Source of the DNA: a virus
Lineage: Duplodnaviria > Heunggongvirae > Uroviricota > Caudoviricetes
DNA length: 11,573 bases
Reading direction: 5' to 3' (one strand)
Virus record (IMG/VR): IMGVR_UViG_3300012974_000418
Positions 746 through 10,717 of the stretch are shown here, in pieces. Positions within the stretch are counted from its first letter, which is position 1. Each line of letters starts with the position of its first letter. The translations under genes and the position numbers were made by a program. The notes beneath the pieces are model-generated. The model was not told where the DNA came from. It worked only from the letters and a program-made list of their open reading frames with translations, and did not search any database.

Positions 746-1501
746 TTATTCAGAATCAATATCTTTTAAATCATCCTGAATCGCTTGTGCGTTCGGATTT
801 TCCTGCGGTTTGAGTTCGCCGCCATTAGCGATGAAATCATGACGCTGGAAGTACGCTTCGCGCACCATAATATAAGGATCGGACGACTGACGCAGCAGAC
901 CATCGGAATCCAGCAGCTGAGCGCGGGTTTCGATCCCTTCAAGCGTCCATTTACCCACAGACATCGGCCAGGTCAGCCAGGAAAGAACCGGGTAAAGACC
1001 ATCCGCCATATCACCACCGTCATCACGCAGCGTGAAGCTACCGTAGAACGGTAACTGAACGTAAGGCCCATAACCCACGCCATAATGACCAAGCGTACTA
1101 CCGAAGCGGTGAGGTTCAGTCCGTTGCAGTTTCGGGTTCGCCATCCCTGCAACATCAATAAAGCCGCCCATCCCCAAAATGGTGTTCAGGAAAAAGCGGG
1201 TAAAGTGGACCATCCCCTGATAAGGGTCGCCCTGCAAGAAGTAGTTAACCATCACCGCAGGTTCTTCAAGGTTGCCAGTAAAGTTGCTCAAACCATTACG
1301 CGCCGGTTGCGGAACATAATCACGCCAGGCGACAGCGACCGGTCGAACAATATACGGGTCTAATACGTTGAAGTTGAAGTTGTACATGGTGCGGTTGAAC
1401 CCTTCTAACGGGTCAGAACGCCCTTGCTGATCTGTACCGGAACTCGCACACCCCACCAGAAGCGTAGTTCCCAGAGCAAGCGCCGACAGGCGAAGCTTCA
1501 T
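746..1501 (-). CDS. mlaA: MlaA/VacJ outer-membrane lipoprotein (phospholipid asymmetry maintenance)
   Basis: 251-aa ORF with signal peptide and lipobox (LLVGC); sequence reads as MlaA/VacJ family; expected position next to yfdC and argW. Confidence 0.88.
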   Translation of the reverse strand: MKLRLSALALGTTLLVGCASSGTDQQGRSDPLEGFNRTMYNFNFNVLDPYIVRPVAVAWRDYVPQPARNGLSNFTGNLEEPAVMVNYFLQGDPYQGMVHFTRFFLNTILGMGGFIDVAGMANPKLQRTEPHRFGSTLGHYGVGYGPYVQLPFYGSFTLRDDGGDMADGLYPVLSWLTWPMSVGKWTLEGIETRAQLLDSDGLLRQSSDPYIMVREAYFQRHDFIANGGELKPQENPNAQAIQDDLKDIDSE

Positions 1502-1794
1502 AAATGTCTCCCTGTTTTTTTATGGCTTATGCAGTTTGCCATCCATGACGGAACGATACCGTATCCGCCTGTTTAGGTGTGGGCGATTGTAACAGCACGT
1601 CAACTGATGTCCAGACGCCCTGATTTGCTGATTTGATCATAGCCTGGTAATCGCCGCCCTGTAGGCTACTTGATTCTATAGAAACAGAAAAAGGCAAACG
1701 CAGCCTTTTCTACATTTTCAGAGTAACTCCCGCCAGTTGCGAGCAAAAAAGCCGCTACGCTTTAGCTATACGTGCTAATTCAAGAGAAGAGACC

Positions 1795-2727
1795 ATGGAC
1801 AACGACAAAATTGATCAACACAGCGACGAAATTGAAGTTGAGAGCGAAGAAAAAGAGCGCGGCAAAAAAATAGAAATAGATGAAGACCGACTCCCCTCCC
1901 GGGCGATGGCAATTCATGAGCATATCCGCCAGGATGGTGAAAAAGAGCTGGAACGCGACGCAATGGCGCTACTGTGGTCAGCCATTGCGGCGGGTCTGTC
2001 GATGGGCGCTTCGCTACTGGCAAAAGGGATATTTCATGTCGAACTGGAAGGAGTGCCAGGCAGCTTCTTACTGGAGAATCTCGGTTATACCTTTGGTTTT
2101 ATTATCGTCATTATGGCCCGCCAGCAATTATTTACCGAAAACACCGTGACTGCGGTACTACCCGTCATGCAAAAACCGACAATGAGCAACGTCGGCTTAC
2201 TTATGCGATTATGGGGCGTCGTGCTGCTGGGTAATATTCTCGGGACAGGTATTGCTGCATGGGCATTTGAATATATGCCTATCTTCAATGAAGAAACTCG
2301 CGATGCATTTGTCAAAATCGGCATGGATGTGATGAAGAACACCCCCAGCGAGATGTTTGCCAACGCGATCATTTCCGGCTGGCTGATCGCCACTATGGTT
2401 TGGATGTTTCCTGCTGCGGGTGCGGCAAAGATTGTGGTGATTATATTGATGACCTGGCTTATTGCACTGGGTGACACCACCCACATCGTTGTCGGTTCTG
2501 TTGAAATCCTCTATCTGGTGTTTAACGGCACGCTGCACTGGAGCGATTTCATCTGGCCCTTCGCACTACCTACTTTAGCGGGGAACATCTGCGGCGGCAC
2601 CTTTATCTTCGCGTTAATGAGTCATGCACAGATTCGTAACGACATGAGCAACAAGCGTAAAGCAGAAGCACGCCAAAAAGCAGAACGTGCGGAAAACATT
2701 AAGAAAAATGATAAAAACCCAGCATAA
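1795..2727 (+). CDS. yfdC: Inner-membrane protein of the formate/nitrite transporter (FNT) family
   Basis: 310-aa ORF with a hydrophilic acidic N-terminus followed by several hydrophobic helices; length and position immediately upstream of tRNA-Arg match yfdC. Confidence 0.85.
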   Translation: MDNDKIDQHSDEIEVESEEKERGKKIEIDEDRLPSRAMAIHEHIRQDGEKELERDAMALLWSAIAAGLSMGASLLAKGIFHVELEGVPGSFLLENLGYTFGFIIVIMARQQLFTENTVTAVLPVMQKPTMSNVGLLMRLWGVVLLGNILGTGIAAWAFEYMPIFNEETRDAFVKIGMDVMKNTPSEMFANAIISGWLIATMVWMFPAAGAAKIVVIILMTWLIALGDTTHIVVGSVEILYLVFNGTLHWSDFIWPFALPTLAGNICGGTFIFALMSHAQIRNDMSNKRKAEARQKAERAENIKKNDKNPA

Positions 2728-2762
2728 ATGGCGAGGGTTTAAGCAATCGAGCGGCAGCGTAC

Positions 2763-2791
2763 TTACCCCGCAGTCCATTAGCGGGTATACT
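2763..2791 (+). promoter_or_regulatory. Possible promoter for the tRNA-Arg gene
   Basis: TATACT at 2786..2791, 11 nt upstream of the tRNA 5' end; weak -35-like TTACCC at 2763..2768 with 17-nt spacer. Confidence 0.3.
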
Positions 2792-2802
2792 CATGCCGCA
2801 TT

Positions 2803-2877
2803 GTCCTCTTAGTTAAATGGATATAACGAGCCCCTCCTAAGGGCTAATTGCAGGTTCGATTCCTGCAGGGGACACCA
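2803..2877 (+). tRNA. argW: tRNA-Arg, anticodon CCU (argW-like), 75 nt with encoded CCA
   Basis: Acceptor stem GTCCTCT / AGGGGAC, anticodon loop CTCCTAA with CCT anticodon, T-arm GCAGG-TTCGATTC-CTGC, discriminator A then CCA at 2875..2877. Confidence 0.93.
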
Positions 2878-3038
2878 TCTATCAGTTCGCTCCCATCCGT
2901 ACCAGTCCGCAAAATCCCCTGAATATCAAGCTCTCCGTAGATTCACAGTTCGTCACGGTTCGCGTCAGATCGTTGACAGCCGCACTCCATGACGGGTAAA
3001 AAGTGGATAAAATAATTTTACCCACCGGATTTTTACCC
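2878..3038 (+). other. attL-proximal region between the tRNA and int, with short direct repeats (possible integrase arm-type sites) and a possible int promoter
   Basis: CAGTTCG at 2883..2889 and 2946..2952, related GGTTCG at 2957..2962; TTGACA at 2973..2978 with TAAAAA at 2997..3002 (18-nt spacer). Confidence 0.3.
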
Positions 3039-4196
3039 ATGCTCACCGTTAAGCAGATTGAAGCAGCAAAGCCGAAAGAAAAACCATACCGCCTTCTCGA
3101 TGGTAATGGCCTGTATCTTTATGTCCCTGTATCAGGGAAAAAGGTATGGCAGCTTCGCTACAAGATTGACGGTAAGGAGAAAATCCTGACCGTAGGAAAA
3201 TATCAGCTTATGACTTTGCAAGAGGCAAGGGATAAAGCATGGAATGCGAGGAAAGACATCTCGGTTGGCATCGATCCGGTAAAAGCGAAAAAGGCTTCGT
3301 CTAACAACAATTCCTTTAGTGCGATTTACAAGGAATGGTACGAGCACAAGAAGCAAGTCTGGTCAGTAGGCTATGCAACTGAACTTGCAAAAATGTTTGA
3401 TGACGACATTTTACCTATCATCGGCGGCCTTGAAATTCAGGATATTGAGCCGATGCAACTGCTGGAAGTAATCCGCAGATTTGAAGATCGCGGTGCAATG
3501 GAGCGAGCCAACAAAGCCCGCAGAAGATGCGGCGAGGTTTTCCGTTACGCTATTGTCACTGGTAGGGCTAAATATAACCCGGCACCTGACCTTGCTGACG
3601 CCATGAAGGGATACCGCAAGAAAAACTTCCCGTTTCTTCCTGCAGACCAGATCCCGGCATTCAACAAAGCACTGGCAACATTTTCAGGAAGCATCGTATC
3701 GCTCATTGCGACCAAAGTTTTACGCTACACAGCCCTAAGAACGAAAGAGCTTCGTTCCATGCAATGGAAGAACGTCGATTTTGAAAACAGGATTATCACC
3801 ATCGACGCCAGTGTGATGAAGGGACGCAAAATTCATGTTGTCCCGATGTCAGACCAGGTGGTTGAACTTCTCACTACACTAAGCTCAATCACTAAACCAG
3901 TATCAGAGTTTGTTTTTGCCGGGCGCAACGATAAGAAGAAGCCAATCTGCGAGAACGCGGTGCTACTTGTGATCAAACAAATCGGCTATGAAGGTCTGGA
4001 AAGCGGTCACGGATTCAGGCATGAATTCAGCACGATTATGAACGAGCACGAATGGCCTGCTGATGCTATTGAAGTGCAACTGGCACATGCCAACGGCGGA
4101 TCTGTGCGCGGGATTTACAACCACGCTCAGTATCTCGATAAGCGCAGAGAAATGATGCAGTGGTGGGCGGACTGGCTTGATGAAAAGGTGGAGTAA
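3039..4196 (+). CDS. intS: Phage tyrosine integrase (IntS/CPS-53-type, argW-specific family)
   Basis: The tracked ORF 3003..4196 starts at GTG; the ATG at 3039 (MLTVKQIEAAK...) gives 385 aa, the length I recall for IntS-type integrases. N-terminal arm-binding-like domain; C-terminal catalytic region with HxxR (HGFRHEF) and a tyrosine near the C-terminus (RGIYNHAQYL). Confidence 0.88.
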   Translation: MLTVKQIEAAKPKEKPYRLLDGNGLYLYVPVSGKKVWQLRYKIDGKEKILTVGKYQLMTLQEARDKAWNARKDISVGIDPVKAKKASSNNNSFSAIYKEWYEHKKQVWSVGYATELAKMFDDDILPIIGGLEIQDIEPMQLLEVIRRFEDRGAMERANKARRRCGEVFRYAIVTGRAKYNPAPDLADAMKGYRKKNFPFLPADQIPAFNKALATFSGSIVSLIATKVLRYTALRTKELRSMQWKNVDFENRIITIDASVMKGRKIHVVPMSDQVVELLTTLSSITKPVSEFVFAGRNDKKKPICENAVLLVIKQIGYEGLESGHGFRHEFSTIMNEHEWPADAIEVQLAHANGGSVRGIYNHAQYLDKRREMMQWWADWLDEKVE

Positions 4197-4250: not shown

Positions 4251-6188
4251 TTAACCTATTGCAACTCTCGCATTACAAAATGCCAAAGCATCAGCCTCCG
4301 TATTGAACTCAACAATAAAAAAGTTTTGCAATCTAATAACGGTGTCCGTTTGTGCAGTAAGATACAATCGAATTGTTCCTGATGATTCTGCTTTTCCAAT
4401 ACCGAAAGTACTTGTCCATTTGCCGTCTTCTGTATAGATAACACCTGCTGAAACAGATTCTGAGAATCTAAAGTTTCCTGTCCCGGAAACAAGTTTAGCG
4501 TTAACCCCCCATACATACCACAGCCCACCAGTTATTGAGGCAAATTCTGAACTTAACTGTGATGACCCAGCATCGATTGATACTTCCGCACAACCATAAC
4601 CAATTGCTATTCCATCATCTACACAGTTTGCTGTTACTTGTTTCGTGCCGGGGAATGACCACGTAGTAGAACCAACAACCCCTGAATATAAATCTGCTGC
4701 ACGTACAGCGCCATGATACCCTATGGCCCCCTTGATAGCTTGCACCGTGGGCGCTCCACGCAAACTTAAGTTGCTACTCGCTAATAATCCAGATTGAGAT
4801 GCAACGCTTTTAATAATCGGGACTCCGCCAACTTCCCCCCCCGCATAAAGATTCTCAACAATAAATGAACTATTAGCGTCAACGTTCATGCTGTAAATAT
4901 TCGAACTAACAGTGTCAATTCGACAGTTACGCGCAATTAAGTTTGAGTTAATTAATTCAATATTAGTTAAGTATGACTCTTCAATGTATGCCTGTGGTGT
5001 GTTTATTAATTTAACCTGTCTCGGAACTTCTTCAGAACCATCGCGATCAATGGTAGATGCCGTAGCAATGAGTTCAAACCATACGTTTCGTATAACAATA
5101 GGGGTATAAGGAACAATGTTATTATAGTCAATCCTTATGCCACCACCAGTGCATTGCTCCATGATGCTATCTTGAATTTGCACAGATCCACCGCCATCTT
5201 GAGCATTCACTATATCAATACAGTATTTAGATATACCTTGGAAATAACAGTCGCGAAATGTATCGCAGCCAGAATGCATGCCGGGCACGCTTTCAGCACG
5301 ATACCCATACTCAGACGTTCTGAAGTTAACAGTTTGATATGTATTACCTATATTACCAGTTGGCTTTTTAATACAAACACCAAAATCAGCCATACCTACA
5401 TAACTGATATCCCATCTCCCAGAGAACATATCATTCGGGTCATATAGCACCCCCACGGAATCAGATGTTGCCGCCCCCTGTATGCTTATTTTTGAAATAC
5501 TTCGACGCTCCCAGTTTGGTACTGATTGTAATACTTTAATTGCATAATCTTCACTCCCTGGTTTTAATATAGATGAGTATCCAGAACCATCAATATCAGC
5601 ATTGCCAGTTGAAACGCTTTCGCTATATATGCCTGGAGAAACAAGAACCCGCCCCCTTGCGGTGGTATCATTAATCGCCTGTTGTAAAGTTGAATAATCA
5701 CCACTATGTTTAATGTCATTCAAATTATCAATTAGCTTTCTTTTACCAGAGCCAATATTTTTTGCACCATCTTCTGCCTGTAGAGCCGATTTACTCTGTG
5801 CATCATTAACTAAATTTAATCCTCCTGGAGAGGACAATTCTTGTCTTAACTGATCTGGATCGTACTTCAGCACATTAGGAAAATAGAACTGCTGTGCTCC
5901 ATACGCGTCATAAACAGCCATGGAATGGCCTTGCACAGTCACAAATTTAGCAATCTGTCCGTTATATACAGGATAACCAGCAGCGTTAATGATGATTGGT
6001 TGAGAAACAGGAACGTGAGAGCCGTCTTCGTTCTCCACATAAACCTGAATCTGGTTTTCAGGATTTACCGGGTCAGTGTCAATTTTACCGATATAAATTT
6101 TGCCATTGGCTACGGCTTTAAAAGAACGAGCCATAGTGAAGAGTTGCGAAGGCATCGATACAATCACATTAGCTGTAATGTCTGTCAT
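4251..6188 (-). CDS. Tailspike protein: P22 gp9-like N-terminal head-binding domain (about 5853..6188) fused to a divergent receptor-binding/depolymerase body
   Basis: The first ~110 aa ([34 protein letters not shown]...VLKYDPDQ) are near-identical to the P22 gp9 N-terminal domain as I recall it; the remaining ~530 aa do not resemble the P22 body. Confidence 0.88.
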
Positions 6189-6288: not shown

Positions 6289-7212
6289 TCAGTAGTTATG
6301 TACTGAAGGAGGCAATTCTTTATTCTTAAGTCTCATCCATGCGGAAAGATTCGTTGGTCCGTCTGGCTCATTGATATCAACATCTCGTGTGTGATTGATT
6401 AAAACGTCTCTCGCCATTCCGATAACATACGAGAATTCATGACCGTAGTCGTAGCATCTGCCGGAATAGTTCGATTGAATTTGTTTTAATGCCGGATACA
6501 GTTCGCGGAATAATGCCTGTGAACGGTTAGCATAATCCCAGAGCCATACAAGGCTGTTTGCTTCTTTTGCAGAAAGCTCGTTGGTTTTCTTCTCTTGTTT
6601 GCCGATGAACTCACCTTCAAGCGGAACTCGAGCTGCAAGTGACAGTGCTTCGGTAAACTGCTCCTCACTGATTTCTTTGTACGAACATCCAAAATGGGAT
6701 TTCAGTGACGACCACATGGTGATCATCGCCTTAGCCTGTTTTTCTTTTGGCAGAGACTGACCGCGACTCATGACGAGTTGTTTAATGGCTTCCTGCTGCT
6801 CAGTGGTGATTTTACCCGGCAATGCCTTTTTAGCTTTGCGCGGGTTAACCACATGGCCTTTAGTCCAGTACTCGTAGAGCACATCGTCACACTCTTCCTG
6901 ATACTGGATTACATTGTCGCGGATTTCAGGGCGGACTTTGTTAGGGCTGATGGTTTGCAACCAGCCATTCAGTTTACGTAAAGCAAGGCAAATCATGGTC
7001 TGCACGCCGCCAACTGAAGGTATTGCGATTTCCACAATACCTTTAGCAAATCTTTGTTTTAACTTTGTAAACTGTGAAGCCCAATCCATACCCATTCCCT
7101 CAACGATAGGTTTCATTGGGGTATACGGTTCGCCGTTGTGATTGACAACATAAAGCTCTGCGCCGTGGAATGGCACGTTGATAGTAGATACTGCTGTTGC
7201 TATACTTTTCAT
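6289..7212 (-). CDS. Phage antirepressor (Ant-like, AntA-type N-terminal domain)
   Basis: 307-aa ORF placed between the arc-like gene and the tailspike, as ant is in P22 immI. The N-terminal region has the look of AntA-type antirepressor domains. RBS GAGGA 9 nt upstream of the ATG. Confidence 0.65.
7178..7206 (+). promoter_or_regulatory. Predicted sigma70 promoter firing antisense across the ant translation-initiation region (Psar-like)
   Basis: TTGATA (7178..7183), 17-nt spacer, TATACT (7201..7206) on the plus strand, inside the first codons of ant; predicted start about 7213. Confidence 0.45.
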
Positions 7213-7283
7213 GTCAGTTTTTCCTCAAAATTTACTGGCGATTTAAGCCCGAGCTACTCGCAATAGCTTGGGCTTTACTCATT
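7213..7283 (+). ncRNA. Candidate sar-like small antisense RNA complementary to the ant ribosome-binding site
   Basis: From the predicted start (~7213) across the ant RBS complement to a hairpin (arms 7245..7255 and 7265..7275, 10 Watson-Crick pairs plus one G-U, 9-nt loop) followed by a U-containing tail; about 68..71 nt. Confidence 0.4.
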
Positions 7284-7425
7284 CTGGACAAACAATTCCA
7301 TCCTTAGCTACTGACTCCTTTAGTCTCCTCAATACCTCATTACTGAACGACCGATCATCCTTTTTAGCGGACTGCTCCAAAGCCTTTTCCAGCCATTCTG
7401 GCATCCTTAATGTCTTAACTTTCAT
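7279..7425 (-). CDS. Arc-like ribbon-helix-helix repressor, 48 aa (below the ORF-track length cutoff)
   Basis: Hand-translated: MKVKTLRMPEWLEKALEQSAKKDDRSFSNEVLRRLKESVAKDGIVCPE. AAGGAG RBS 5 nt upstream of the ATG at 7423..7425; RHH pattern (MP..L...L....RS.N.EV..RL.ES); position between mnt and ant. Confidence 0.6.
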   Translation of the reverse strand: MKVKTLRMPEWLEKALEQSAKKDDRSFSNEVLRRLKESVAKDGIVCPE

Positions 7426-7529
7426 TTTTGCTCCTTTGTATGTGGTACGCATACATAGTATTTAGGTACGCATTGATAGTCAATAGATACCTACATATCC
7501 TGTGGTAAATAATTATTCAGGATGCGCCG
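7426..7529. promoter_or_regulatory. Divergent promoter/operator region between the arc-like and mnt-like genes (Pant-like and Pmnt-like)
   Basis: Minus strand: TTGACT (revcomp of 7478..7483), 17-nt spacer, TACTAT (revcomp of 7455..7460). Plus strand: TTGATA at 7473..7478 with TATCCT at 7496..7501. Imperfect palindrome GTATG-N7-CATAC (7438..7454) centred on GTAC; direct repeat GGTACGCAT at 7444..7452 and 7465..7473. Confidence 0.5.
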
Positions 7530-7781
7530 ATGTCTGATCGTAAGTACAAAAACCCTCAAGTGAATCTGAGGCTTCCTGTAGAGATAAAGGAACGTCTTAT
7601 TGAGCTGGCTGAGGCTAATTCTCGTTCATTAAATGCTGAGATGGTCGCGGCACTTGAAGCGTGGACCGAAAAAAATAAACACATTCAAGCACTAGACCTT
7701 GCAACTATAGCATCGCGGTTGATAGAGCTTGAGCATGAGGTTGAGAAGTTAAAATGTATGCATGGCAACGGTGAAAAATGA
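7530..7781 (+). CDS. Mnt-like ribbon-helix-helix repressor (maintenance-of-lysogeny repressor of the immI module)
   Basis: 83-aa ORF, the length I recall for P22 Mnt; N-terminal RHH pattern (VNLRLPVEIKERLIELAEANSRSLNAEMVAALEAW); divergent from the arc-like/ant genes. Confidence 0.7.
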   Translation: MSDRKYKNPQVNLRLPVEIKERLIELAEANSRSLNAEMVAALEAWTEKNKHIQALDLATIASRLIELEHEVEKLKCMHGNGEK

Positions 7782-8092
7782 AACGCATCGCTATTTTGTT
7801 AATATTGTTCTTCTCTACAATAGTTTGCGCCAAACAAAAATCAGATAATGGCGATCTTAAAGGCCTGCAAGAACTCATGATAACTTCGAAATTTGCTGGC
7901 ATGTGCGGCACAATCAAACAAATGGCAACATTTCAAGAATCAACAAAAATGCCTGGCGGAGATGAGTTCTTACATCGTTTTCTGACCACAGAGCAAGCAA
8001 GACTTGGAATGAATCCACAGGAGTTTCTTGAAGCATGCCAGAAGTCAATTTCAGCTTATACCAATTATTACAATCTAACTTCTGATAAATAA
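7778..8092 (+). CDS. Small exported protein of unknown function (N-terminal signal peptide); accessory gene in the mnt operon
   Basis: 104-aa ORF whose ATG overlaps the mnt stop (ATGA); hydrophobic N-terminus MKRIAILLILFFSTIVCA; AT-rich relative to flanking genes by eye. Confidence 0.6.
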   Translation: MKRIAILLILFFSTIVCAKQKSDNGDLKGLQELMITSKFAGMCGTIKQMATFQESTKMPGGDEFLHRFLTTEQARLGMNPQEFLEACQKSISAYTNYYNLTSDK

Positions 8093-8117
8093 TAGAAAGG
8101 ATTTTATAAATAACTTT

Positions 8118-8603
8118 ATGAAAAAATCACTATTAATTATCCCGCTTCTGCTGGCTGGATGCGCAAAAGTAAGTGACTATCAAGCAAGTTGCGAACAACG
8201 CTATCCAAAGCTTAGTGATATGGCTAATTGCCTTGATGCCAGCGTGAAGAACGACTCACGCATGGCATCAGCACCAACACCTAAGCTGTATGTCCTTGCT
8301 GCGAAGATGCTCGGGCAAGGTGTCGATGAAGGCAAGATAAGTGACGCACAGGCAAGACTTGAGCTTCAGAATCTTTATGTTCAATTACAAAGCCAAGAAC
8401 AAGCCCAACAAATAGCACAAAGCCAAGCATTCCAGCAGGCTTTATTGAATTATCAGGCTGTAAACACAATGCAAGCGATCGAGCAAAAAGCGAGACAGCC
8501 TGTTATAACTCAACCTTACCCAACGCGTGTTGACACCTATACAAACTGCAATTCAGGATTTGGAAATACCGTCACATGCAACAGTAGCAGCAACATTAGA
8601 TAA
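8118..8603 (+). CDS. Predicted outer-membrane lipoprotein of unknown function with a Gln-rich predicted helical region
   Basis: 161-aa ORF; lipobox LLAG-C with Cys at position 15 and Ala at +2 (no Asp inner-membrane retention signal); Q-rich segment (QLQSQEQAQQIAQSQAFQQALLNYQA); same strand as and downstream of mnt. Confidence 0.65.
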   Translation: MKKSLLIIPLLLAGCAKVSDYQASCEQRYPKLSDMANCLDASVKNDSRMASAPTPKLYVLAAKMLGQGVDEGKISDAQARLELQNLYVQLQSQEQAQQIAQSQAFQQALLNYQAVNTMQAIEQKARQPVITQPYPTRVDTYTNCNSGFGNTVTCNSSSNIR

Positions 8604-8605
8604 AG

Positions 8606-10717
8606 CTATTCATATTCATTCATACCGCTTAACGAGGCGACAATACCAACTCTCGACAAGCGATTGAATTCATCGCTACCAATAGCATCGCGTATTGCTT
8701 TTACGGCGGCTTTATTTGCCATAAATCTGCGTTCAGCCGCCGCTAATGCACCATCACTTGCCCCAACCTTAACTGCCTTTGTTGCCTCTTGGACAGCCTT
8801 TTCAATCGCGTAACGACCACTGCGGGATGCAGCTAACTTTTCTATCGTCCCTTTAGCTATAGATCCAGAAACAGCCCCCACAACACCGCCAACAATCCCG
8901 CCACCAGTGGTACCAACAATAGCCCCTGATGTTGAATTGCCTATTGCATTGAGAACTGTCATGACAGCTTTTGGCAGCCCTTGCTCAAGAGAGTTAATAG
9001 CCGGTATAGAGCGCCCCGTATGCTCTACATATCGCAGTGGTCTGGTTGCTGCTCTGGCAAGGTCGCTGTATGCCCTAGCAATCTTACCCATTTCTGGCGA
9101 GTGCCTGCTAATGGCAGTAATGTTCTGCGGCGTAAGGATCGACGCTATATGGAATACGCCAGCAGACTCTGATTTACCGCCACGCACCCCTTGCGATACC
9201 GCATCTTGTAATATTGATGCAATTGCTGGAGATCGCTCAGACTCTGGCAGTGAGCCAATAATCTGATGAAACTTTCCTGTCCCACTTTTTGATGAATTTT
9301 GCAAGGCTTTAATACCATCAGTGACTAACTGATCAGTTGCAAGGTTTCTAAACGCTGCTTCAGCCTGTTCTTGTGCTGTAAATCTTGCTTTTGACAGATC
9401 ATTAGCTTTTTGCCAGTCATCAAGAAAACCGCCATTTTGAGCCATTATGCGCATATCTTCCGTTGCTGCATCACGAAGCTCCGCCATGCGCCTTGCCGTA
9501 TTTGCCTCACCAGACCTTATATACTTCTGCTCAGCGTCAGCAAGTTTACTTCGCCATGCCTTCATGGCATCAAACGTGATTCCTTTTTTACCAGTTTTAG
9601 CATAAGCAGATGCAAATTGTTTCATCTCAGGAGTTAGCGGCATGCCAGCCAAAATATCACCCTGAATTGTAGCGTTCAGGTTTGACATTCTGGCCTTTGC
9701 GTCAGGCATCGTGGAGCGGACGCTATCCCATGCTGCCTTTTCTGAGTTCTTCATTTTATCAATACTTGCTAAAACCCTTTGTTTTATGGCTGCACTTTTT
9801 TCTGATGCAGATCCAGCCTCAGCACCAAGTTCATCAAGTGCTGAGTGGAATTTCGACTGTATTTCACTAAACGCCCTAGTATGTGCATCCTGAACAATTC
9901 CTGGTTCGGATGCCAATATCCCTTCGGCTTGTGCAATTCCACGACTTCCAGATCGCATTCCTGGTGTTAATGCGTTTATATCAATTCCAGCAGACTCAGC
10001 CGCTTTTGCTACATCTTCGGACACATTAGCGGCCTGACTGGCAATTGACTGACGCCCAGCACCTGACTTTGCCATCCTGGAAACATCATTAGCAGAATTC
10101 AGTGCTGCACCACCAAGAGCCTGTGAAACCCTTGGCGCAATAACGCGCCCGACACCTGAAAGAACGCCTTGAGCACCAATATTGATACCACCGTTAATGG
10201 CAGCATTTTGTGCAAAATCACCCTCCTGATTTGCAGCATCAGCAAGAGAACCTGCAATCATGTTTCCTGCGGAACCGATATCTCCAGCGAGCTTTGCTGG
10301 CGCTCCAGCAGCTTTTGCCGCTGTGCCAATTGGCAGGAGATACCCACCAATTGTTTCACCGGCTTGCGCATAAGGGTCTGTCGGTCGATCGACTGGACGA
10401 TAGACATCATCCAAAACCTTGGGGCCACCAAGCCCCTGGCTGATTGCATTAATCAGACTTGCGCCACCCTGCAATACGTCAAATGGTATGTTTACCAGAC
10501 CACGGCCAGCCTGTTCTGCAATTTGCCCTGCGCTTTGACCACCAGTGAGCCAGTCAGTGGCTTTTCCTACCAGAGATTGTTCTTCTGGCTGCGATTGGTT
10601 TTGAGTGGATTGATCACCAGAAGACAGCATCTGAGCAATGCGACGTGCTCCCTCAGTATCGCCGGCAGCATCAGCATTCCTTAACGCCGTCATCAACTGT
10701 TCGCGACTATAGGCCAT
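8606..10717 (-). CDS. Internal virion/DNA-ejection protein (P22 gp16-like by position), Ala/Gly-rich
   Basis: 703-aa ORF, the last late-strand gene before the immunity module, as gene 16 is in P22. Low-complexity A/G/S-rich composition with a glycine-zipper-like segment ([22 protein letters not shown]) near the C-terminus. Its ATG overlaps the upstream gene stop (TAATG). Confidence 0.55.

Follow-up and report, generated by a model that had tools for sequence, protein, structure and literature searches.

A P22-type immI control region with predicted back-to-back promoters and a phased array of candidate repressor boxes in an Escherichia coli prophage

Arc and Mnt of bacteriophage P22 are textbook models of DNA recognition by ribbon-helix-helix (RHH) repressors, and the immI region is the model of antirepressor control. 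In the P22 record, the promoters Pant (14793-14821, plus strand) and Pmnt (14798-14826, minus strand) overlap almost wholly, so that each -35 element abuts the -10 element of the other, and two unrelated operators are present: Oarc lies in the single common spacer, while Omnt is a 17-bp dyad over the Pant start. Here we analyze the corresponding region in a window of 11,573 nucleotides (the whole stretch of DNA analyzed, IMG/VR record IMGVR_UViG_3300012974_000418), namely the gap of 104 bp (7426-7529, as compared to 90 bp in P22) between a leftward arc-like and a rightward mnt-like gene. Two further types of regulatory region invite comparison. At lambda OR, three related sites lie at the divergent promoters PR and PRM; these are 17-bp dyads spaced at 23-24 bp and are read by helix-turn-helix repressors. 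RHH repressors like omega of pSM19035, CopG and proteins of the ParG/ParR type, on the other hand, act on contiguous arrays of short repeats of 7-11 bp.

The window consists of host genes plus one end of a P22-like prophage in E. coli, situated at a tRNA-Arg gene, and its ant/arc/mnt locus is found where P22-like phages have their immI region or "ant moron" (PMC2629481). Among phage records, CUS-3 and SEN22 of the genus Lederbergvirus come closest. As in P22, mnt is divergent from arc, a sar-like RNA and ant, and the locus is placed between gene 16 and the tailspike gene; two RHH repressors are encoded, a dyad covers the predicted Pant start and a further element resides in the Pant spacer. 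The system is thus a P22-type immI, classical in kind; new are its operator set, the back-to-back promoter geometry and a phased array of three boxes. Whereas the P22 promoters share one spacer, the -35 elements in the window stand back to back with an overlap of 1 bp, each promoter has its own spacer and about 60 bp lie between the predicted starts, such that an earlier sequence-only reading, which described the arrangement as being in the manner of P22 Pant/Pmnt, had the geometry wrong. Instead of two unrelated operators there is one type of box, occurring three times at 21 bp, and the Mnt-like protein carries the Arc-like strand PQVNLRLP in place of PHFNFRMP of P22 Mnt. Neither Oarc (ATGATAGAAGCACTCTACTAT) nor Omnt (AGGTCCACCGTGGACCT) is found anywhere in the window at up to three mismatches, and a different operator specificity is therefore likely, in agreement with the sequence-only reading. 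We conclude that the gap probably acts as the switch controlling transcription in a P22-type immI (mnt / arc-sar-ant), one in which the operator specificity is distinct and the geometry has been rearranged.

The same allele, with an identical or nearly identical control region, is present in CUS-3, in SEN22 and in prophages of 147 out of 5,426 complete E. coli genomes, where it is chromosomal in every case; the Mnt proteins of these phages and prophages are 88-94% identical to that of the window, and nothing of substance differs. The searchable literature yielded nothing relevant on a characterization of this immI allele or on its operator strings.

For evaluating conservation, relatives were collected by searching IMG/VR and GTDB genomes with the Mnt-like and Arc-like proteins. 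They stem from E. coli, Salmonella, Yersinia, Erwinia, Pantoea, Lonsdalea, Chimaeribacter, Xenorhabdus, Photorhabdus, Providencia, Arsenophonus and others; the alignment was anchored on the core ATTGNNNNTCAA, and counts refer to 33 non-redundant representatives that are at least 5 nt apart and cover at least ten enterobacterial genera. A consensus scan independently paired TTGATA with TATCCT on the plus strand and TTGACT with TACTAT on the minus strand (Table 1). The two -35 hexamers are located exactly where they had been noticed before, and each is now matched by a -10 element at a spacing of 17 bp, with predicted starts near 7448 for Pant (leftward) and near 7508 for Pmnt (rightward). An alignment across related prophages had been proposed as a check, and it speaks for the promoters: both -35 elements and the matching -10 elements are kept at fixed spacing among the representatives. 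A -10 pattern that is maintained at fixed spacing while its sequence varies is what functional -10 elements should show. These features argue strongly for two outward-firing sigma-70 promoters the -35 elements of which overlap by a single base pair. An alternative Pmnt, TAGATA-18-AATAAT (7484-7513), was rejected, as the AATAAT region is unconserved and belongs to a mobile mnt leader.

The limits of the control region emerged from a comparison of two E. coli allele classes, represented by the window and by FDAARGOS_403 (identities in Table 1). Identity falls off in the arc leader, and hence the left arm of the dyad marks the exact beginning of the conserved block. At the other end, homology to the window begins at 7503 wherever mnt follows another repressor gene as the second cistron (MS196 and L031), which identifies 7503-7529 as a leader that travels with mnt and not as operator; this segment is not conserved in distant relatives. 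The description of all 104 bp as a promoter/operator region thus holds with regard to the promoters and has to be given up for the last 27 bp. The extent of the gap follows from placing the arc-like start at ATG 7425, which is preceded by AAGGAG 5 nt upstream (complement of 7431-7436). A start at ATG 7452, giving an open reading frame (ORF) of 57 aa, was dismissed: it is devoid of a Shine-Dalgarno sequence, falls within the first box and upstream of the predicted Pant start, and N-terminal extensions are unrelated in other genera.

Within the conserved block, the 9-mer GGTACGCAT is found at 7444-7452 and 7465-7473, 21 bp apart, as stated in the sequence-only reading; these are the only exact copies in 11.5 kb on both strands, compared to about 0.09 expected from window length and 9-mer frequency. 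Three features had escaped that reading, a 21-nt direct unit (7444-64 and 7465-85, 76% identical), a third box at 7484-7494 and an imperfect palindrome with 18-nt arms centered on 7478 (7459-76 and 7480-97, 78% complementary). The family as a whole exhibits three 11-bp candidate boxes of the type T(A/G)GGTAYGCAY, termed O1 (GTGGTACGCAT), O2 (TAGGTACGCAT) and O3 (TAGATACCTAC), the central T and A of which fall at 7446/7, 7467/8 and 7488/9. They are exactly 21 bp apart and all three are consequently positioned on one face of the helix. The columns of O2 are among the most conserved of the region, and the best-conserved columns outside the promoter elements are GTACG of the second copy of the repeat. 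In E. coli, O3 coincides with the right arm of the 18-nt inverted repeat and reads as an inverted partner of O2. Such an assignment does not extend to distant relatives, in which the third box is a direct copy with the canonical sequence; its equivalent is TAGGTACGCA(T/C) or TAGGTATGCA in Yersinia, Lonsdalea, Erwinia, Photorhabdus and several IMG/VR relatives. Both ways of reading O3 are explained by the quasi-palindromic nature of the GGTACC core. The degenerate box GRTAYSYA was found ten times, as opposed to 3.9 expected occurrences, and five of the ten are within 7444-7499. A trend visible by eye relates residue 8 of Mnt (N or H) to the sequence of O3, but it is confounded by phylogeny.

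The palindrome GTATG-N7-CATAC noticed earlier at 7438-7454 is unique in the window, appeared in none of 200 shuffles and extends to 9-nt arms (7434-42 and 7450-58). Its form GTATG(T/C)G-GTA-CGCATAC is perfect in TW10590, IGC, L016 and L039. Among 16 divergent relatives, the outer five pairs (TGTAT/ATACA) are kept in 11 to 15, while two of the inner three are disrupted more often. O1 is the center of this dyad, so that the palindrome cannot be regarded as independent of the direct repeat. The two candidate operators proposed on the basis of the sequence alone are thus both present, albeit not as two separate elements but as parts of a set of three boxes in 21-bp phase. It is hardly credible that the palindrome (7437-7455) functions at the RNA level, as a hairpin or terminator, rather than as a protein site, even though it was classed by the scan as terminator-like on the plus strand with eight pairs followed by TAGTATTTAG. 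Its run of T is poor, just one arm would be transcribed as the element includes the predicted Pant start, and a plus-strand transcript is not expected there since the sar-like RNA ends at 7279. Furthermore, compensatory changes are absent, with not a single pair altered on both sides in the 16 divergent sequences, which points to a DNA element and argues against a hairpin.

With regard to the protein that reads the boxes, four loci from Providencia and Moellerella (L177-L180, ~600-700) are informative, as they contain mnt without arc or ant. They keep GGTACGCATTGATA flanked by two GATACCTA boxes at a spacing of 10-11 bp, O2 being among the elements retained, together with a promoter TTGATA-17-TAGAAT. 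The preservation of the boxes in loci with mnt only favors the Mnt-like protein as their reader, and we assign them to this protein with somewhat better than even chances. Homology of these loci starts sharply at a TGTAT-N4-ATACA element, CTGTATACATA(T/C)ACA(A/G), that resembles a LexA box or else a TGTAT/ATACA dyad in shortened form; a umuD-like gene with an SOS box of its own adjoins it in P. alcalifaciens (L178, 115-528).

The LexA-box-like palindrome accompanying the Mnt-only modules is one of two observations that could be taken to mean that the repeats are sites for a host factor or, without binding any repressor, remnants of a duplication or echoes of promoter elements. The other is that the 21-nt unit is in part made up of promoter hexamers, ATAGTA being the Pant -10 element and GATAGTCAA the pair of -35 elements. 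We regard such an origin as very improbable, because the GGTAYGCA cores lie outside the hexamers and yet are among the best-conserved columns, across genera in which the flanking genes are only 37-65% identical. In addition, 7426-7529 does not contain a CTGT-N8-ACAG box.

Based on these features, Pant would transcribe arc and ant leftward and Pmnt would transcribe mnt and the genes downstream of it rightward. In the lysogen, Mnt-like protein produced from Pmnt would occupy O1 and O2 on either side of the Pant -10 element and thereby block Pant and synthesis of the antirepressor. The dimers on O1 and O2 would probably be bridged via the predicted C-terminal helix, a guess that takes the tetramer of P22 Mnt as its model. 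O2 adjoins the Pmnt -35 element and need not repress Pmnt, while the weaker O3 in the Pmnt spacer would be filled at higher concentration, so that Pmnt is limited by autoregulation. After infection, Pant would fire and the Arc-like protein would feed back via the O1 dyad and/or the same boxes, with sar RNA limiting translation of ant. Graded repression of one promoter combined with autoregulation of the other is possible at lambda OR as well; the likeness is one of analogy only, without homology, and the window differs by RHH repressors and by asymmetric 11-bp boxes spaced at 21 bp. A resemblance to the omega, CopG and ParG/ParR-type arrays concerns short asymmetric boxes in either orientation and in helical phase, as well as the Thr/Arg type of strand of the window's Arc-like protein; we treat it as a lead only. 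In contrast to these arrays, the strong boxes in the window are 21 bp apart, and promoter hexamers fill the intervening positions at one helical turn.

A division of labor closer to that in P22, with the O1 dyad serving solely as operator for a tetramer of the Mnt-like protein and O2 plus O3 forming an operator pair through which the Arc-like protein silences both promoters, is possible but doubtful. It would agree with the positions of Omnt and Oarc, and as the spacers are separate in the window, one box per spacer would be the natural equivalent of the latter. Several relatives have a perfect O1 dyad, and the inverted repeat linking O2 with O3 becomes more symmetric, as a 39-bp imperfect palindrome around 7478, in TW10590 and IGC. 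However, O1 shares its GGTAYGCA core with O2, O3 is a direct and not an inverted copy of O2 in distant relatives, boxes of the O2 and O3 type are kept in the Mnt-only loci, and the inner positions of the dyad are unconserved.

Both repressors might also read the same three boxes, with concentration, oligomeric state and cooperativity setting the outcome. We consider this explanation unlikely, though it is not without parallel. A different immI allele, that of E. coli MS 196-1 (L005, 863-970), encodes two RHH proteins which both have the strand PLGIRIP, and its gap contains two copies of CTACACCGTG, spaced at 21 bp around the Pant -10 element, in addition to a third, palindromic copy CTACACTGTGTAG. 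The layout of three sites at 21 bp consequently recurs with another specificity, and sites common to both repressors are conceivable. Moreover, both heads in the window have Arg after the central hydrophobic residue of the strand. On the other hand, the residues predicted from alignment to Arc to face the DNA differ, V-T-R in one and Q-N-R in the other protein.

The identification of both flanking genes as RHH repressors, already put forward from the sequence alone, is well founded. The Mnt-like protein matches Pfam Arc with 40.2 bits (cut-off 20.4), has 1MNT as its best match in the PDB (E = 3e-5) and falls into PHROG 795, the family of P22 Mnt. Its strand is identical to the one in the FV10 mutant of Arc, the structure of which was solved with DNA (1BAZ/1BDV). 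Ten divergent homologs all have YxxPQVNLR, and the strand Y-K/R-N/H-PQVNLRLP is kept in all relatives. A C-terminal helix (57-77) is predicted, and the C-terminal segment is without sequence similarity to the C-terminus of Mnt. The Arc-like protein reaches 25.1 bits with Pfam Arc against the same cut-off and matches PHROG 228 ("Arc-like repressor"); its relationship to P22 Arc is a distant one (PDB search, E = 0.4-0.5). In the two E. coli alleles, codons 1-10 of the arc-like gene show eight nucleotide changes (22/30 nt identical) and no amino acid change, while the alleles have only 16 of 36 residues in common in the rest of the protein. The first ten residues, MKVKTLRMPE, comprise the beta-strand, and their constancy indicates that the reading strand is under strong purifying selection. 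A strand [ST]-[LV]-R-[MF]-P is retained across three arc types with otherwise different N-termini.

Two observations on the arc-like gene may be added. One allele class terminates in a conserved Cys-Pro-Glu (…G[IV]xCPE; window 7279-7296, L118-L140 and L186-L190) and ranges from E. coli to Yersinia, Erwinia and Lonsdalea, while the other E. coli class ends with …REGV(M/T)V. In the RefSeq annotation of E. coli TW10573 (L003, 6067-6192, equivalent to window 7279-7404), the gene starts at Met8 and is listed as a "hypothetical protein" of 41 aa, whereby the DNA-reading strand is cut off. Other genomes carry the 48-aa form, so automated start calls are inconsistent; the RefSeq label now given to homologs is "Arc family DNA-binding protein."

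Strand and operator have changed together within the classic Mnt lineage. Compared to P22, Mnt of ST160 (L088, ~820-850) has the strand PQFNLRLP with Gln instead of His6, and the dyad upstream of mnt is TAAGACCAC-G-GTGGTCTTA instead of AGGTCCAC-C-GTGGACCT. We also tried predicting operators from the reading strands, on the grounds that TGATAG and ATAGTA resemble Oarc half-sites, and abandoned this as evidence because ST160 contradicts it; it is retained as a lead. The same status is given to the left half of the box (GRTA), which matches what we take, from the structure of the Arc-operator complex, to be the core of P22 Arc half-sites.

A number of points weigh against the switch as proposed. 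Pant, Pmnt and their starts are predictions, and the Pmnt -10 hexamer TATCCT is weak (the promoter scores 9/12 overall). O3 is poorly conserved in sequence among the 33 representatives, and the four Mnt-only loci are so closely related that they count as about one observation. Adjacent RHH dimers are usually spaced at 8-11 bp; 21 bp is twice that distance, and cooperative binding to O1 and O2 is accordingly speculative. The C-terminal helix invoked for bridging derives from a low-pTM, single-sequence model of a single chain. Despite its strand PQFNLRLP, ST160 Mnt is associated with a quite different upstream palindrome, TAAGACCACGGTGGTCTTA, from which it follows that strand residues alone do not predict the DNA bound. 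Finally, no sub-element of the region covaries with the type of arc, as three arc strand types adjoin the same region; the whole package appears to vary as a unit, and sites for the Arc-like and the Mnt-like protein are not separable in this way.

Table 1. Features of the immI control region and its surroundings in the window. Identity refers to the comparison with FDAARGOS_403.
Feature	Position	Strand	Basis and remarks	Identity
Pmnt -35, TTGATA	7473..7478	+	Scan; TTGATA or TTGCTA in 30/33 representatives	
Pmnt -10, TATCCT	7496..7501	+	Scan; TAnnnT in 32/33, 12 different hexamers used	
Pant -35, TTGACT	7478..7483	-	Base 7478 common with Pmnt -35; TTGACT 30/33, TTGACA 2/33	
Pant -10, TACTAT	7455..7460	-	Scan; TACTAT or TAATAT in 26/33	
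Dyad TGTAT-N9-ATACA	7437..7455		17-bp palindrome GTATGYG-GTA-CGCATAC; over predicted Pant start	
Candidate box O1	7442..7452	+	Predicted Pant -3..+5; GGTAYGCA core in nearly all relatives	
Candidate box O2	7463..7473	+	In Pant spacer, abuts Pmnt -35 (about -41 from predicted Pmnt start)	
Candidate box O3	7484..7494	+	In Pmnt spacer, 21 bp from O2; degenerate in E. coli	
Dyad to Pmnt -10	7437-7502			66/66
mnt leader	7503..7529	+	Shine-Dalgarno AGGA (7519-7522)	26/27
mnt-like gene	7530..7781	+	RHH repressor, 83 aa; Pfam Arc; strand KNPQVNLRLP, predicted C-terminal helix	243/252
arc leader				7/11
arc-like gene	7279..7425	-	RHH repressor, 48 aa, MKVKTLRMPE...; Pfam Arc; first gene of ant operon	
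arc codons 11-49				61/117 nt
sar-like antisense RNA	7213..7279	+	arc-ant gap; Rfam RF00262 and fold	
Psar-like promoter	7178..7206	+	TTGATA-17-TATACT with TG extension; consensus scan, 10/12 matches	
ant antirepressor gene	6289..7212	-	307 aa, regulated output; Pfam P22_AR_N 150 bits, P22_AR_C 104 bits	
mlaA and formate/nitrite-transporter-family (yfdC-like) gene			Host part; 746-4196 together with tRNA-Arg and integrase	
tRNA-Arg(CCT)	2803-2877			
Tyrosine integrase	3003-4196			
Tailspike	4251-6188	-	P22 head-binding domain	
gp16-type DNA-transfer protein	8606-10717	-		

The ant gene is located downstream of the arc-like gene on the same strand, both forming one leftward operon, and its product contains both P22_AR domains. 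The match of the arc-ant gap to Rfam RF00262 spans the full model (1-68) and reaches 29.3 bits, which is under the gathering score of 43 (E = 0.0014); the predicted fold has -25.7 kcal/mol (z = -4.35). The Psar-like promoter lies within the 5' end of ant just upstream of the sar-like RNA, in the position of P22 Psar. In the adjacent chromosome, the order tRNA-Arg(CCT) followed by the integrase gene indicates integration of the phage at an argW-type site. On the opposite side, the stop codon of mnt and the start codon of an ORF for 104 aa with a signal peptide overlap (ATGA), and one for a lipoprotein of 161 aa with an LAGC lipobox follows (region of the pair, 7778-8603); both match PHROGs of unknown function. 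In the lysogen, Pmnt probably drives transcription of the two ORFs along with that of mnt. They take the place of sieA in P22 and are candidates for exclusion or conversion functions.

A genome comparison from 2008 led to the conclusion that CUS-3 is devoid of arc and that its ant is controlled differently (PMC2629481). In CUS-3 (L001, 1388-1528, minus strand), we found an unannotated RHH ORF of 46 aa (MKVKTLRMPEKLEKIL...) that is arc-like, adjoins the same operator region and sits within the "bsq2 boundary sequence" of this phage. This finding corrects the inference that CUS-3-type phages have no arc gene.

Tandem mnt genes of different specificity were observed in CUS-3 (L001, 1635-2164) and in the MS196-type prophage (L005, 971-1479), and also in L031, L182 and L183. 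CUS-3 has a window-type mnt followed by a near-P22 mnt (MARDDPHFNFRMP...), with no P22 Omnt visible in the CUS-3 gap, and MS196-type prophages have their own mnt followed by one of the window type. Such stacked genes may represent trans-acting cassettes that give cross-immunity to the antirepressors of other phages. In its widest form, the proposal would be that two RHH repressors with different strands use one helically phased array, consisting of three strong boxes 21 bp apart and perhaps two weaker ones provided by the promoter hexamers, that oligomerization and cooperativity set the decision, and that stacked mnt genes are portable trans-acting cassettes shielding the lysogen from antirepressors of heterologous superinfecting phages; we put this combination forward as a speculation that is more likely wrong than right by a wide measure.

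The allele described here is common in E. coli and old, given its conservation across many enterobacterial genera. It presents a natural swap of specificity, in which an Mnt protein is equipped with an Arc-type strand and nevertheless faces different operators, and in which the single common operator of P22 is split into phased boxes while the promoter geometry is rearranged. Practical consequences are small and concern the annotation of prophage regulatory regions and the prediction of cross-induction between prophages. For the family of RHH repressors, the allele would offer a convenient second system for studying determinants of specificity beyond the strand residues as well as the evolution of heteroimmune immI types.

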